64,000 nucleotides of DNA from Escherichia phage vB_EcoM_LNA2. The notes under the pieces were generated by a model. It did no database searches and was not told the DNA's origin. It worked only from the letters and a program-made list of their open reading frames with translations. Position 1 is the first letter of the stretch; each line of letters opens with the position of its first letter. A program made the translations under genes and the position numbers. Location of the stretch: sequence record MZ311865.1, one strand, 5' to 3'. Below, in pieces: positions 5,703-10,148 of the stretch.

Positions 5703-5714
5703 ATAGGCCTCCTG

Positions 5715-5927
5715 TTAATTTTGGCCAGTATTTATTTTTCGCCTTTGGACGGCCTTAACATCTGTGAGGTATTTTTCCAGCTTGCGCTTGCGTGTATAAT
5801 CAGCTTTAGAACCAGTTTGACGGATATCCTCATTTAAATGAGAAATAGAATGTCCTAATTCTCTTCGGATTTCATCCAATTGGGTTACAGTAAGATTACG
5901 AAGTTGTCTTTCGTTTAATTGCTGCAT
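5715..5927 (-). CDS. hypothetical protein (70 aa)
   Basis: ORF track; compact arrangement between rI and tk. Confidence 0.45.
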
Positions 5928-5954
5928 ATATACCTCTTGGTTAGATATTAGTAT

Positions 5955-6536
5955 TTATAACAACCCTGTCAAATCATTCCAATGCTTCCGGCATAATGAC
6001 ACGTATCTATCAGTATCACCAATTTCAATTTGACTGCCATCTGTAATTGGAAGTCCGTCTTCCGTGACTCTAGCTACCATTGTAGCCTTTTTACCACAAT
6101 GACAGACACCTTTAAGTTCAACAAGCTTATCGGCAATAGCCATTAATGCTTGAGAACCTTCAAATAGATTACCTTTAAAATCTGTTCGTAGTCCATATGC
6201 CATTACTGGCACATTGTATACGTCAACAATACGACTAAGTTGATACACCTTTTCAGTAGTTAAGAACTGAGCTTCGTCAACAAATACACAATGAATATCC
6301 TTTTGTGCTGCAGCCCATTTATAGAATTCAAAGATGTCCATGTCTTTTGTAATTATATTGGCATCCTGACGAATACCAATACGAGAGACTATTTCACCTT
6401 TTGAATCACGAGTATCAATAGCCGGTTTAAGAACTAATACACCCATGCCACGTTCTTTATAGTTATGTGCAGCAGTAAGTAATGAAGCAGACTTACCGGC
6501 ATTCATAGCGGCATATGTAAAAATTAAACTAGCCAT
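5955..6536 (-). CDS. tk: thymidine kinase
   Basis: P-loop AAMNAGKS near N-terminus, FVDEAQF motif and C-terminal Cys cluster (CHCGKKA...C) typical of TK1-type thymidine kinases; matches T4 tk organisation. Confidence 0.9.
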   Translation of the reverse strand: MASLIFTYAAMNAGKSASLLTAAHNYKERGMGVLVLKPAIDTRDSKGEIVSRIGIRQDANIITKDMDIFEFYKWAAAQKDIHCVFVDEAQFLTTEKVYQLSRIVDVYNVPVMAYGLRTDFKGNLFEGSQALMAIADKLVELKGVCHCGKKATMVARVTEDGLPITDGSQIEIGDTDRYVSLCRKHWNDLTGLL

Positions 6537-6545
6537 AAGAGTCCC

Positions 6546-6728
6546 TTATAGTGAATTCACGTAGTCAATGAGTTCTTGTTCTTTCCTGTCAAATGATTCC
6601 ATCAATGCGTGATATTCTTCGTCCGTCAAAGGAGCATATTCATCGTACGCATTGGTGGCTGCTTGTTCATCCAATAGGTCATGGATAAGTTCGAACAGTT
6701 TAGCTTTCTCTTCTTTAGTTAATTTCAT
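6546..6728 (-). CDS. hypothetical acidic protein (60 aa)
   Basis: ORF track; tight spacing after tk. Confidence 0.4.
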   Translation of the reverse strand: MKLTKEEKAKLFELIHDLLDEQAATNAYDEYAPLTDEEYHALMESFDRKEQELIDYVNSL

Positions 6729-6937
6729 TTAGGTTCACCTTCTTTAACGAAATCTGGGTAAGGGTAAAATCCTGAGTAAAATCCTTCACCTTTATGATTG
6801 CTACAACCTTTGTTCGAACAGTAACACCAATAATCAAAATCACAAGCCATTTCGTCATTGCATAAAGCAAAAACTACAGGCCATTCGCATTTTTCGCATT
6901 TAGCACCTGTAAGAATTTTTGTTTGGCTCATAACCAT
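6725..6937 (-). CDS. hypothetical Cys-rich protein (70 aa), possible metal-binding
   Basis: Multiple Cys pairs (CEKCEW, CNDEMAC, CYCSNKGC); overlaps neighbours by 4 nt. Confidence 0.45.
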   Translation of the reverse strand: MVMSQTKILTGAKCEKCEWPVVFALCNDEMACDFDYWCYCSNKGCSNHKGEGFYSGFYPYPDFVKEGEPK

Positions 6938-7155
6938 GTCACCTTTAAGCAGTATTCTTCTACATGCTGTTTACGACCTTTCTTATCAATAAAGGTATAT
7001 TCAACGAATGTTCCAATGTAGTCTTTATCTACATCATGTGGACTATTAATTGGACATTTAGTACGACAAATGCGTTCCCATTGACGAATAATTACTGCCT
7101 TATTCTTTGGGTCGTATGGATGTGGATAATGTATATTCATAATAATGGTTCCCAA
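6928..7155 (-). CDS. hypothetical protein (75 aa)
   Basis: ORF track; overlapping start/stop with neighbours. Confidence 0.45.
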   Translation of the reverse strand: MGTIIMNIHYPHPYDPKNKAVIIRQWERICRTKCPINSPHDVDKDYIGTFVEYTFIDKKGRKQHVEEYCLKVTWL

Positions 7156-7634
7156 TCAACAATCACAATTTCTAGTTTAGTGGAATACGTATCTAAAATC
7201 TCTTCGATGATATCCCAGTTTCCGCCACCGATACCAGCACCAATTCTTGGCATATAAATTAAAGGCTTTGTTATCTTATTCTTTCCGAATTTATTTAATT
7301 CTATTATACAATTCATTAAAGCAGAGTACTCAAAATTAGGTCCAGGCTCAAACTGTGTATAAAGATTAAAGCAATAAGCTTTATGGGTCTTAAAATATTT
7401 TTCATAAACCGAATAAGACCCGAGTTTAGATTCGTCTCCGAATTCGGTTTGAAGTTTATCGGCTTCCAGAATTTTTGGATAAGCCTTTGCTAATTGTCCT
7501 GCCACACCAGCGCCCATTGTATGAAAACAATTACACCCATGAGCAATATTATTACCTTTAGAAAACAGGGCGACAATATCGCCCTTGATATAGTTTTTAA
7601 TCACTTGCTGCAAGTCCTCTAGTATAAGAGTCAA
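7137..7634 (-). CDS. macro-domain-like protein (possible ADP-ribose binding/hydrolase)
   Basis: Motifs NNIAHGCNCFHTMGAGVAGQLAKAYP and PRIGAGIGGGNW resemble the two glycine-rich phosphate-binding loops of macro domains; assignment by pattern only. Confidence 0.5.
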   Translation of the reverse strand: MTLILEDLQQVIKNYIKGDIVALFSKGNNIAHGCNCFHTMGAGVAGQLAKAYPKILEADKLQTEFGDESKLGSYSVYEKYFKTHKAYCFNLYTQFEPGPNFEYSALMNCIIELNKFGKNKITKPLIYMPRIGAGIGGGNWDIIEEILDTYSTKLEIVIVDWEPLL

Positions 7635-7944
7635 CTAGACGGTCCACCATAGAATTGCATGCTGCCTTATCTTTAGGTTCCGCCACCGAGCATTCTAATA
7701 TTTGCCATTTTTTATAGTATCTTTTAATTAAGGTAGACGCCTTGAACCTACTAGACGCCCCATCTTTTTCTCCGTCTTTATACGCATATAACAATTTTTG
7801 TGAAAAATCTACTTTACACTCTTGACTTTTACCACAATAATCAGACGCCGTTCTGTTTGTATACTCCGTTACATCAGTATATGTAGTATTAGCAAGAGCG
7901 TTAAATGAAACCAAGCCAACTATTAAAGCCAACATTTTGGTCAT
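7597..7944 (-). CDS. exported small protein (115 aa)
   Basis: N-terminal signal-peptide-like MTKMLALIVGLVSFNALA; several Cys. Confidence 0.5.
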   Translation of the reverse strand: MTKMLALIVGLVSFNALANTTYTDVTEYTNRTASDYCGKSQECKVDFSQKLLYAYKDGEKDGASSRFKASTLIKRYYKKWQILECSVAEPKDKAACNSMVDRLVDSYTRGLAASD

Positions 7945-8483
7945 TCTTTTATTTCCAGTAGTTTATTTGATTTAAGGTAATTAGCCTTTTCTAGGACTTC
8001 AGAAGCATATTTACTTCCAGCACTTGTCTTCCATCCCGCATTGTATGAGGATATAGCTTTTCTTATATCCCCATTATGTATATTTAACCAATAAGAAAAT
8101 TCGATATAAGCCCATCTGGTTGAATTAGACCGCTTAGATAGCATTTTCTTAATTTGGGCATCAGTCATATTATAACCAAGCTGGTTAATTCTTGCCCTCA
8201 TTGTTGGTAGATAATTTTGGAACATTCCATACGCATGGTGACCTTTCTTATCTTTAAGATTAATACCAGCAGATGATTCCTGCCATAGTATTGCGGCCAT
8301 TATGTATCCAAGTCCTTTCTTATGCATATTTTCATGCGTTTTAAATTTTCCATCCTTAGAAAACTGTTCCCCAAACTGATAAGCATAATTCAAGTTATCG
8401 AGTTGGACATTACTAAAAGTATGCTCGGAGCTATGTGCTGATAATGAAAGAGCAAATAGACCAGCGAGTAGTGCTTTTCTCAT
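7941..8483 (-). CDS. exported lytic-transglycosylase-like (SLT-type) protein
   Basis: Signal peptide MRKALLAGLFALSLSA; ILWQESSAG...GMFQ and SYNAG motifs resemble the catalytic Glu-Ser and GLMQ/AYNAG motifs of soluble lytic transglycosylases. Confidence 0.55.
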   Translation of the reverse strand: MRKALLAGLFALSLSAHSSEHTFSNVQLDNLNYAYQFGEQFSKDGKFKTHENMHKKGLGYIMAAILWQESSAGINLKDKKGHHAYGMFQNYLPTMRARINQLGYNMTDAQIKKMLSKRSNSTRWAYIEFSYWLNIHNGDIRKAISSYNAGWKTSAGSKYASEVLEKANYLKSNKLLEIKE

Positions 8484-8491
8484 GTTTACCT

Positions 8492-8950
8492 CTAGATTTT
8501 AATCACTGCTTTAGAAGCTTTTCCTGGTAGTCGTTTATTGTTAATAATAGCCATTCTGCATTGAAGAGTCTTCATTTTGAATGCCGGATTTTCGCGACAA
8601 ACTGTAAGTCCTAACCAAAGATTTCCATCAGTTATTTCTAAACGGCCTGGGCGATATTCGACACCTTCGACAAAATCTTCATCAACATCTGGACGTGCCG
8701 GCATTGATAAAAATTCTGCAACTTCTTTAACATGATTTTTTACTTTACGAAATAATTCAAAAACGTAATTCTCATCTATTTCTCTCTGGATGGCACGATC
8801 TAAGAGATGTTGAGAATACTTGATATGAAAGCCTGGTAGTCCAAGAGACTTTGCAGCATCTTTTATACTGGCATTTATTTTGCGGAACTCCGTTTCAAAG
8901 ATTCGACGGAGTTTATTGCGGCGGATAAAAACGTCTGAATTGATAGTCAT
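8492..8950 (-). CDS. regB: RegB-like sequence-specific endoribonuclease
   Basis: Translation MTINSDVFIRRNKLRR...YSQHLLDRAIQREIDE...GVEYRPGRLEITDGNLWLG... closely resembles T4 RegB as recalled; strong early promoter at 8979-9007. Confidence 0.85.
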   Translation of the reverse strand: MTINSDVFIRRNKLRRIFETEFRKINASIKDAAKSLGLPGFHIKYSQHLLDRAIQREIDENYVFELFRKVKNHVKEVAEFLSMPARPDVDEDFVEGVEYRPGRLEITDGNLWLGLTVCRENPAFKMKTLQCRMAIINNKRLPGKASKAVIKI

Positions 8951-8978
8951 TTTGATTTCTCCTCTAGTTGACAGGTCT

Positions 8979-9007
8979 ATAGTAACACAACTAGAGGAGA
9001 AGTAAAC
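8979..9007 (-). promoter_or_regulatory. T4-type early promoter (regB)
   Basis: Minus strand GTTTAC, 17 bp, TACTAT, about 30 nt upstream of the regB ATG. Confidence 0.6.
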
Positions 9008-9306
9008 TACTCTTTGAAAGGAATTAACTTTTTAACTGCTTTAGATACTTCGTCACGAACCTGGTGGAAGTTCTTGAGCTGTTCAAGGCGTTGTTCGTAA
9101 TACGCAATCTCATCTTCTTCAAGACAATCGTCAGCGTCTTCTTTCAGATATGCCTTGTACTCATTAAAGAGGGCCCATAGGCGATTCTCAAAGTCATCAA
9201 GGCTTTGAATTTTCTTGTGCTTCGGAACAAGGCCAAAAGGATTGCTTTCAGTTATGCGTCGAGATGCTTCATAATGAGTTCCAAAGCCTGATAGGATTTG
9301 AGCCAT
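9007..9306 (-). CDS. hypothetical protein (99 aa)
   Basis: Track ORF 9007..9348; ATG at 9306 preceded by GAGGAAAAA is preferred (MAQILSGFG...). Confidence 0.5.
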
Positions 9307-9572
9307 TAGTATTTTTCCTCTGGTTGAAATACCGCACGACAAGCCCACATACTAGCTTCTTTTAGATGTTGCTTAGCATACTTAAGAGCCTGCACTGCAT
9401 CCATATCTTCTTTGGTTTGTTGCTCTGTTTCATTTTCTTTTAAGATATATGCTTCTTCAATCAGAGCATCAAACATCAATCCAAGACGGACTTCTGCATC
9501 TTTAATAGCGTTCACTTTACTGATTTTATCGTCGGTATGTGGCTTGTAGCCTTTAATATCTTCAATCGACAT
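9306..9572 (-). CDS. hypothetical protein (88 aa)
   Basis: Track ORF 9306..9740; ATG at 9572 preceded by GAGGAAA ([10 protein letters not shown]...) is preferred because the longer form overlaps the upstream gene. Confidence 0.45.
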
Positions 9573-9786
9573 AAGGAATTTCCTCATCTGTGGCAAAGTC
9601 ATATTCGACCAATTGGATAGGCTCATTAATACCATATCCACGTACAGTGATATCAGTTGTCGGATAGTTTCCAGTAATATCACCCATTCTAAATGCTTCA
9701 ATGAATGATTGCTCGCCTGAGCAACTAAACCAGGCGGCAAAACATTTTAAAACATCTTCAGACCCTTCTATAATCAATTTAGCCAT
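9562..9786 (-). CDS. hypothetical acidic protein (74 aa)
   Basis: ORF track; start codon overlaps the stop of the GrcA-like gene. Confidence 0.45.
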   Translation of the reverse strand: MAKLIIEGSEDVLKCFAAWFSCSGEQSFIEAFRMGDITGNYPTTDITVRGYGINEPIQLVEYDFATDEEIPYVD

Positions 9787-10148
9787 TATAGACTCTCGGT
9801 AAAGGTACGAGCGATAACGTCGCGCTGCTGTTCCGGAGTCAGAGAGTTAAAGCGAACTGCATAACCTGATACACGGATGGTCAGCTGCGGATATTTTTCC
9901 GGATGCTTAACTGCATCTTCCAGAGTTTCACGACGCAGAACGTTAACGTTCAGGTGTTGACCACCTTCAATTTTAACTTTAGGTTGATGTTCAATTTCAA
10001 TTTCACGAGCATTCAAACCGTAGAAAATTTCTGGGTCTACAATAGAGTCTTCTTTAAAAGTCTTAGAGACAATAATCCGGGCTTGAGTACCGTCTTCAAA
10101 ATAAATAGTGCCTTTATGTGCACCTTCAAGAATTTGATATGCTTTCAT
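9786..10148 (-). CDS. autonomous glycyl radical cofactor (GrcA/YfiD-like, PFL C-terminal glycyl radical domain)
   Basis: C-terminal [59 protein letters not shown] carries the RVSGYAV glycyl-radical signature and is essentially identical to enterobacterial GrcA as recalled. Confidence 0.85.

Follow-up and report, generated by a model that had tools for sequence, protein, structure and literature searches.

The window, i.e., the whole stretch of 64,000 nucleotides of phage DNA analyzed here, carries the gene tk.4 in the block that extends from the thymidine kinase gene to regB (Table 1). The gene order tk, tk.1, tk.2, tk.3, tk.4, vs, vs.1, and regB is the same as in phage T4, with tk.4 flanked by tk.3 (DUF7202) and vs as in T4, and gene order and family assignments agree across Pfam, PHROGs, and the T4 RefSeq annotation, so that the tk-regB location given in the original prediction stands.

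The two genes that follow tk.4 had been described at the same time as encoding exported proteins, one of them resembling a lytic transglycosylase. The N-termini of both vs and vs.1 products show a basic, then a hydrophobic, then a small-residue segment, which is typical of Sec signals and is conserved in T4. The resemblance of vs.1 to lytic transglycosylases stayed below threshold (19.4 bits with the SLT model, for which the Pfam cutoff is 21.3), and some GenBank records label vs.1 as SLT-domain-containing. The PDB sequence search returned no match for vs.1, and neither vs nor vs.1 matched an NCBIfam model. A scan of positions 5800 to 9800 gave 13 promoter-like sequences for 14 expected and 4 terminator-like sequences for 2.4 expected.

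Table 1. Features of tk.4 and of the surrounding tk-regB block (positions in the window; residues numbered on the 155-aa protein)
Feature	Position	Strand	Remarks
Thymidine kinase	5955..6536		Pfam/PHROGs
Three small ORFs between thymidine kinase and tk.4			Pfam/PHROGs survey
tk.4 (adfM) CDS	7137..7604	-	155 aa, GTG start, TGA stop, single macro domain
Glycine loop 2, PRIGAGIGGGNW, residues 119-130	7215..7250	-	Predicted phosphate-binding loop
Gln84, invariant	7353..7355	-	In the column of TARG1 Lys84 (catalytic) and PhiKZ AdfM Lys78
Glycine loop 1, HTMGAGVAGQLA, residues 28-39	7488..7523	-	Predicted diphosphate/distal-ribose binding loop of macro domains
HGCN motif, H22-G23-C24-N25	7530..7541	-	N25 opposite active-site N23 of PhiKZ AdfM
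Upstream extension of 10 codons, TTG at 7634	7605..7634	-	Within the 3' end of vs; probably untranslated
GAGGA, Shine-Dalgarno-like motif	7615..7619	-	Within the vs CDS, 10 nt upstream of the GTG start
vs, valyl-tRNA-synthetase modifier	7597..7944		Pfam/PHROGs
vs.1	7941..8483		Pfam/PHROGs
Endoribonuclease RegB	8492..8950		Pfam/PHROGs

Start codon and orthology of tk.4

The mechanical ORF (7137..7634, minus strand) is 165 aa long from a TTG codon and encodes both HTMGAGVAGQLA and PRIGAGIGGGNW, as had been claimed for its product, at a distance of about 91 residues; the combination of such an ORF with this two-loop pattern lies far beyond chance. The length of 165 aa has been corrected, as the true start is most likely the GTG at 7604, codon 11 of the longer form, rather than the TTG at 7634. 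We set the start there because residue 11 of the 165-aa form is the alignment start for most phage homologs, because 155 aa is the length of both T4 Tk.4 and a 98%-identical protein cluster (P0001), and because a GAGGA motif lies upstream of the GTG at a distance of 10 nt. A GAGGA motif occurs at the equivalent place ahead of the ATG of T4 tk.4, and inspection of the sequence context before the TTG at 7634 revealed no Shine-Dalgarno motif. These observations led us to reject the TTG as the start. The GTG start and the stop codon of vs share sequence (GTGATTAA), the two genes overlapping by 8 nt, whereas T4 tk.4 has an ATG start and overlaps vs by 4 nt.

The gene is the Mosigvirus ortholog of T4 tk.4 (adfM). 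Its product and T4 Tk.4 (NP_049723) share 132 of 155 residues (85%) in a gapless alignment (E value, 1e-104), and the two proteins have in common their length of 155 aa, the position of their genes between tk.3 and vs, both glycine loops, and all the invariant residues described below. Within loop 2, position 127 differs, being K in T4 Tk.4 and G in the phage studied here. The codon differences between the two genes comprise 50 synonymous and 24 nonsynonymous changes, which fits purifying selection. More closely related sequences place the phage among the mosigviruses: over its first 25 kb, the window is 96 to 97% identical to genomes of the RB69/JS09/mar005P1 type, and the 2.5 kb around tk.4 matches Escherichia phage vB_EcoM-172859UKE1 with 99.7% identity.

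Homologs occur in 2,797 phage records, hundreds of which label them macro domain or phosphatase. The T4 RefSeq entry for the 155-aa product of tk.4 reads "phosphatase; Tk.4; contains A1pp phosphatase motif," and the record of vB_EcoM-172859UKE1 already labels the gene "macro domain protein." Hence, the proposal that this locus encodes a macro domain protein is correct but already known, since the gene is annotated and the function of its ortholog has been published in a 2025 preprint.

Macro fold and predicted active site

The tk.4 product is a genuine macro domain protein, a member of the macro superfamily. Pfam Macro (PF01661) matched it with 27.2 bits, above the gathering cutoff of 22 (E value, 4e-6), over positions 2 to 117 of the 118 positions of the profile, and PHROG 335, which bears the name "phosphatase," matched with an E value of 9e-66. 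A single-sequence search of the PDB recovered BT1257, Poa1p, SCO6735, TARG1, and DarG. Searching with a family profile built from 45 homologs gave these macro matches E values ranging from 8e-17 to 4e-11, including 8e-17 for BT1257, 2e-16 for TARG1, 1e-13 for Poa1p, 9e-14 for SCO6735, and 8e-13 for Mycobacterium tuberculosis DarG.

The AlphaFold2 model, for which the input was the homolog alignment with the T4 sequence left out, reached a pLDDT of 94.9 and a pTM of 0.90 and contains seven strands and five helices. Foldseek matched it to macro domains of the PDB at a probability of 1.0 and TM scores of 0.7 to 0.8. There were 144 matches with an E value of at most 0.001, and 49 of the 50 best PDB matches were macro domains or designs on a macro scaffold. 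Leading the matches were TARG1 (1.7e-10), Poa1p (TM score, 0.80), and the DarG proteins of Thermus aquaticus and M. tuberculosis (TM scores, 0.73 to 0.77); BT1257 and SCO6735 (9.5e-7) were also matched, and viral macro domains came after. The model and the Foldseek matches thus agree on the three-layer alpha/beta/alpha macro fold. The original prediction, which had called the product macro domain-like from its two loops and had proposed fold prediction and loop conservation as checks, is therefore borne out on each count: the Pfam match exceeds its cutoff, the predicted fold is that of a macro domain with TARG1, Poa1p, and DarG as nearest neighbors, and the glycine loops are retained across the 45 homologs, which are 37 to 98% identical to the protein.

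Conserved residues among these 45 homologs occur both in and outside the loops. In loop 1, which aligns with the MGAGIA loop of TARG1, G33 and A35 are invariant, and M30 and G31 are at least 90% conserved. In loop 2, P119, I121, G122, and G124 are invariant, and I125, G128, and W130 are at least 90% conserved; this loop aligns with PRIGCGLDRLQW of TARG1, placing G126 opposite D125, and with PRIGCGLAGGTW of SCO6735. Outside the loops, H22, G23, N25, C26, D49, N80, Y82, T83, and Q84 are invariant. N25 lies opposite N23 of PhiKZ gp104 in both the BLASTP and the MAFFT alignments. The N23A mutant of this PhiKZ protein, also called AdfM, lost its activity, and the active-site residues of DarG are N22 and K80 (PMC13309987). 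H22 aligns with the presumed H23 of Poa1p, an assignment that presupposes a shift of 3 residues from the chain numbering to that of the protein and takes the H23A substitution from the title of a PDB entry. Poa1p carries HSCNC, which matches the HxCNC motif of the Tk.4 protein.

The predicted active site is distinguished by Gln84. In the HMM alignment, the family motif NlYTQ lies opposite YLITK of TARG1, so that Gln84 falls in the column of Lys84 and Gly126 in that of Asp125, and the MAFFT alignment places Gln84 in the column of the Lys of the FPTK motif of PhiKZ gp104 (Lys78). The catalytic Lys of DarG is hence absent, with an invariant Gln in its place, and the Lys84/Asp125 dyad of TARG1 is replaced by Gln84 and Gly126, which excludes a TARG1-type glycohydrolase. 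K80 of DarG has been equated with K84 of TARG1, and Gln85 of SCO6735 has been described as the residue at the equivalent position and as essential (PMC9411070). Our direct alignment to SCO6735 (5E3B), made with a C-terminal fragment as the query, covered loop 2 and ended short of the Gln region, and Gln84 was equated with Gln85 of SCO6735 by transitivity through TARG1. By this transitive equivalence, the Tk.4 protein would combine, as SCO6735 does, a Gln at the Lys position with the lack of an acid/base residue at the position of the TARG1 Asp. Because of this Gln and of the PRIGxGxxGGxW loop shared with SCO6735, we would place the Tk.4 protein among the ALC1-like macro domains of the Gln type, an assignment that depends on the same transitivity. 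The new detail from the alignments is that an invariant Gln takes the place of the catalytic Lys of DarG and TARG1, as in SCO6735.

Comparison with characterized macro domains helps to situate this protein. Human TARG1/OARD1 (4J5R) and Bacteroides BT1257 (2FG1) are its best matches in the PDB by sequence and fold together. TARG1 likewise removes thymidine-linked ADP-ribose (PMC12879935), and BT1257, a protein without known function, has a Gln at the Lys position like the Tk.4 protein. SCO6735 has the macro fold, a nearly identical PRIGxGxxGGxW loop, a Gln for the Lys, and no TARG1-type Asp, but is a chromosomal protein of Streptomyces coelicolor tied to antibiotic production and is only ~21% identical to the Tk.4 protein. 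The DarG structures (5M31 and 5M3E from T. aquaticus, 5M3I from M. tuberculosis) share with it the fold, the conserved active-site Asn, and a detectable sequence homology, as well as, going by T4 genetics, the adversary DarT2; DarG differs in having the catalytic Lys and a C-terminal DarT-binding domain, whereas the Tk.4 protein has Gln84, consists of a macro domain alone, and has no adjacent darT gene. Membership in the DarG family was rejected, with 30 bits against a cutoff of 250 for NCBIfam NF048014 and with neither the Lys, the C-terminal domain, nor an adjacent darT; this match covers positions 4 to 146 of the 338 of the model, i.e., the macro part only. PhiKZ gp104, the AdfM of Chimallivirus, is also a stand-alone phage macro domain that counters DarTG2, and its active-site Asn aligns with that of the Tk.4 protein. 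Its identity to the Tk.4 protein is ~20%, and it is a close relative of DarG (133 bits) that keeps Lys78. The activity of PhiKZ gp104 on DNA has been demonstrated biochemically (PMC13309987).

Proposed DarTG2 counter-defense and competing activities

The original prediction had raised the possibility that this protein reverses ADP-ribosylation and had recommended assays against DarT-type defenses, an idea that agrees with the DarTG2 sensitivity of T4 deleted for its 85%-identical ortholog. When a T4 transposon library (HIDEN-SEQ) was grown on a host with DarTG2, tk.4 alone emerged as a significant hit; T4 with a clean tk.4 deletion became sensitive to DarTG2, and the gene was renamed adfM, for anti-DarT factor Macrodomain (bioRxiv 10.1101/2025.11.20.689424). 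The authors of this preprint, which is not peer reviewed, go no further than to say that removal of the ADP-ribose from DNA by the enzyme "seems likely" (bioRxiv 10.1101/2025.11.20.689424). Their finding fits the earlier observation that T4 lacking adfA and adfN is still resistant to DarTG2, from which a further factor had been predicted (PMC11825919). The suggestion of a DarT assay was thus apt but not new, since the experiment had already been done with the T4 ortholog.

We consider it probable that the tk.4 protein serves as a counter-defense against DarTG2 through Gln-type DNA de-ADP-ribosylation. The DarTG2 phenotype was established by genetics in T4, whereas the phage studied here is a Mosigvirus, and we infer from orthology that the role is carried over, together with the enzymatic removal of thymidine-linked ADP-ribose by a Gln-type mechanism. 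We propose a model in which the DarT2 toxin of the host ADP-ribosylates thymidines when the phage DNA is single stranded, which blocks replication; the phage macro domain would bind the attached ADP-ribose with both glycine loops and hydrolyze the bond between the ribose C1'' and thymine, thus restoring the DNA. The chemistry would be of the Gln-plus-activated-water type, as in SCO6735, and probably not Lys-based as in DarG and TARG1; we favor it because the invariant Gln84 sits where DarG and TARG1 have their catalytic Lys. The thymidine-linked ADP-ribose made by DarT2 in single-stranded DNA is reversed by DarG, TARG1, and SCO6735 (PMC12879935 and PMC9411070), and for SCO6735 a water-activated mechanism has been proposed that depends on Gln85, the Q85A mutant being inactive (PMC9411070). 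Hence, since the Gln-bearing SCO6735 cleaves this linkage, the missing Lys is no argument against DNA de-ADP-ribosylation by the Tk.4 protein. The PADLOC DarG model lends support to the same reading, in that it spans the whole protein with an E value of 2e-8, although its score is weak at 32 bits compared with 133 bits for PhiKZ AdfM.

That DarT2 is neutralized mainly through binding of the toxin, i.e., by stoichiometric inhibition instead of hydrolysis of the DNA adduct, appears quite improbable. The catalytic Lys of DarG is indeed missing from the Tk.4 protein, and inhibition of DarT in vitro is preserved in the dead mutants SCO6735 Q85A, DarG K80A, and TARG1 K84A, being strongest with SCO6735 (PMC9411070). 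However, the invariance of N25, Q84, H22, and the two ligand loops extends to homologs that are only 37% identical, which argues for retained catalysis. Moreover, the C-terminal domain with which DarG binds DarT is absent from this protein of 155 aa.

A very improbable alternative is that the protein reverses ADP-ribosylation or RNAylation by the phage enzymes Alt, ModA, and ModB, or degrades ADP-ribose-derived signals of the Thoeris type. The argument for it is a general one, namely, that T-even phages encode ADP-ribosyltransferases and that macro domains handle ADP-ribose derivatives (PMC9503650). Against it, no alt, modA, or modB was found adjoining tk.4, no Thoeris-related phenotype has been reported for tk.4, and its detection as the one significant hit of the DarTG2 screen provides a sufficient role. 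Alt, ModA, and ModB modify arginine, and macro domains are not known to act on the arginine linkage.

The principal alternative is a main activity as ADP-ribose-1''-phosphate (ADPR-1''-P) phosphatase, similar to yeast Poa1p or phage Adpp, acting not on DNA but on a soluble metabolite such as the product of an aRES defense, with the DarTG2 phenotype as a side or indirect effect; we regard it as unlikely. It draws on the RefSeq label of T4 Tk.4 with its A1pp phosphatase motif and on the name of PHROG 335, as well as on Poa1p being among the best matches (1e-13 with the profile; TM score, 0.80) and sharing HxCNC. It also draws on gp179 of Vibrio phage ABurr, which is 36% identical to the Tk.4 protein (E value, 8e-25) and is encoded directly between Adps-like and Namat-like genes. 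These neighbors, a ribose-phosphate pyrophosphokinase and a nicotinate phosphoribosyltransferase, correspond to the NARP1-AP layout, and we took ABurr gp179 as an Adpp-type protein from this operon position. Adpp of Vibrio phage Gary (KNV71_gp137) converts ADPR-1''-P to ADPR and defeats the NAD+-depleting aRES defense (bioRxiv 10.64898/2026.01.28.702374). The phage relative that is best characterized, of the Adpp type, is not a DNA enzyme.

ABurr gp179 has the HxCNC, the Gln, and the GxGxxGGxW pattern in common with the Tk.4 protein, and with the PADLOC DarG model it scores 44.5 bits, more than the 32 bits of the Tk.4 protein. Because gp179 shares this pattern and outscores the Tk.4 protein on DarG, sequence is not sufficient to tell DNA glycohydrolases and ADPR-1''-P phosphatases apart in this family; blanket "phosphatase" or "anti-DarT" labels applied by annotation pipelines will consequently be wrong for some members, Tk.4-type proteins and Adpp being inseparable in this way. 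Differences do exist next to the Gln, where the preceding residue is Thr in the Tk.4 protein and Gly in ABurr, and at the Gln position itself, which is Ser in Poa1p.

Genomic context, unlike sequence, does separate the two activities, because dephosphorylation is of use only together with NARP1, of which the window shows no Adps or Namat homolog. A phage profits from converting ADPR-1''-P to ADPR only where NARP1 then rebuilds NAD+ (bioRxiv 10.64898/2026.01.28.702374). In tblastn searches of the 64-kb window with ABurr Adps and Namat, no homolog of either was found (best E values, 1.7 to 2.0). While Adpp genes lie inside NARP1 operons, the gene studied here, which shares with them the Poa1p-type homology, lies outside such an operon, in the tk-regB block, with tk.3 and vs as its neighbors both here and in T4. 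Namat-like genes occur in 189 Escherichia phage records compared with 1,002 that have a macro homolog, and the Escherichia Namat examples among the matches listed belong to genomes of 78 to 89 kb, which is not the T-even size. Finally, the sole genetic phenotype recorded for tk.4 is sensitivity to DarTG2.

Macro domains are often promiscuous at C1'', so that one activity need not rule out the other. A more speculative and less likely reading is that Tk.4/AdfM and Adpp form one Gln-type clade with a common active site, whose enzymes would have a dual activity, removing thymidine-linked ADP-ribose from DNA and dephosphorylating the ADPR-1''-P produced by aRES; the stand-alone T-even protein would then serve counter-defense in both ways, through a Lys-independent, water-activated mechanism.

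Our study allows the Mosigvirus gene to be labeled adfM with confidence. Two different macro subfamilies, one of the Lys type with PhiKZ gp104 and one of the Gln type with T4 Tk.4, received the name AdfM independently of each other.

Overlapping genes and a patch shared with T4

From tk.1 to vs.1 (window 6546-8483, minus strand), the genes are chained through overlaps between stop and start codons, which suggests translational coupling along this block. The start of tk.3 is more likely to be the ATG at 7140 than the listed TTG at 7155, since the DUF7202 alignment begins at residue 6 of the ORF opened by the TTG.

Overlaps between neighboring genes and positions of features in the tk.1-vs.1 block
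Feature	Window position	Strand	Description
tk.1/tk.2			4-nt overlap
tk.2/tk.3			10-nt overlap
tk.3/tk.4			4-nt overlap
vs/tk.4			8-nt overlap
vs.1/vs			4-nt overlap
Hairpin	7567-7585	-	GC-rich, 8-bp stem, AGGGCGAT-ATT-GTCGCCCT, inside the 5' end of tk.4
vs	7597-7944	-	"valyl-tRNA synthetase modifier" Vs
vs.1	7941-8483	-	

We compared window 6928-7190, which covers tk.3 and extends into the 3' end of tk.4, with positions 5714-5976 of the T4 sequence (L001). Nucleotide identity to T4 reached 99% for tk.3, with 2 synonymous differences in 71 codons and a fully identical protein (100%), whereas it was 81% for the adjoining tk.4, and the tk.2 product showed a protein identity of only 16%. This pattern resembles a patch of ~260 bp exchanged by recent recombination between a Tequatrovirus and the Mosigvirus lineage of the window phage.

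The hairpin of tk.4 follows the GTG start at a distance of ~20 nt, precedes a T-rich stretch, and has the same nucleotides in T4. Because the stem-loop sequence encodes the conserved KGDIVAL of the tk.4 product, coding constraint alone may be sufficient to explain its conservation. No enrichment of terminator-like sites was found in the region around the hairpin.

Signal-like N termini of Vs and Vs.1

On inspection of the sequence, Vs carries a Sec-signal-like N terminus (MTKMLALIVGLVSFNALA|NT), which T4 Vs keeps (MTKILVLCIGLISFSASA). Such an N terminus appears odd in a protein reputed to bind a cytoplasmic synthetase. T4 vs has been described as gaining importance in minimal medium (bioRxiv 10.1101/2025.11.20.689424, the HIDEN-SEQ preprint). 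The N terminus of Vs.1 is likewise signal-like (MRKALLAGLFALSLSAHS). This protein scored 19.4 bits against the SLT transglycosylase profile, below the cutoff of 21.3, and had no match in NCBIfam or by PDB sequence search; it belongs to PHROG 600, labeled "unknown function."

Macro proteins named AdfM and matches in FelixO1-like phages

AdfM is the new name both of T4 Tk.4 (bioRxiv 10.1101/2025.11.20.689424) and of PhiKZ gp104 (PMC13309987). PhiKZ gp104 (L003:12518-13006, in the PhiKZ sequence) is Lys-type and DarG-like. On the DarG model, it scores 133 bits, and the window orthologue of the Gln-type T4 Tk.4 scores 32 bits. Two non-orthologous macro proteins bear one name, a nomenclature collision that could misguide annotation.

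FelixO1-like phages, of about 78 to 89 kb, are among the listed matches for both the macro homologue (records H46, H49, and H51, 33 to 35% identity) and the gene resembling Namat of NARP1 (H90, H91, and H93), the records being different for the two genes.
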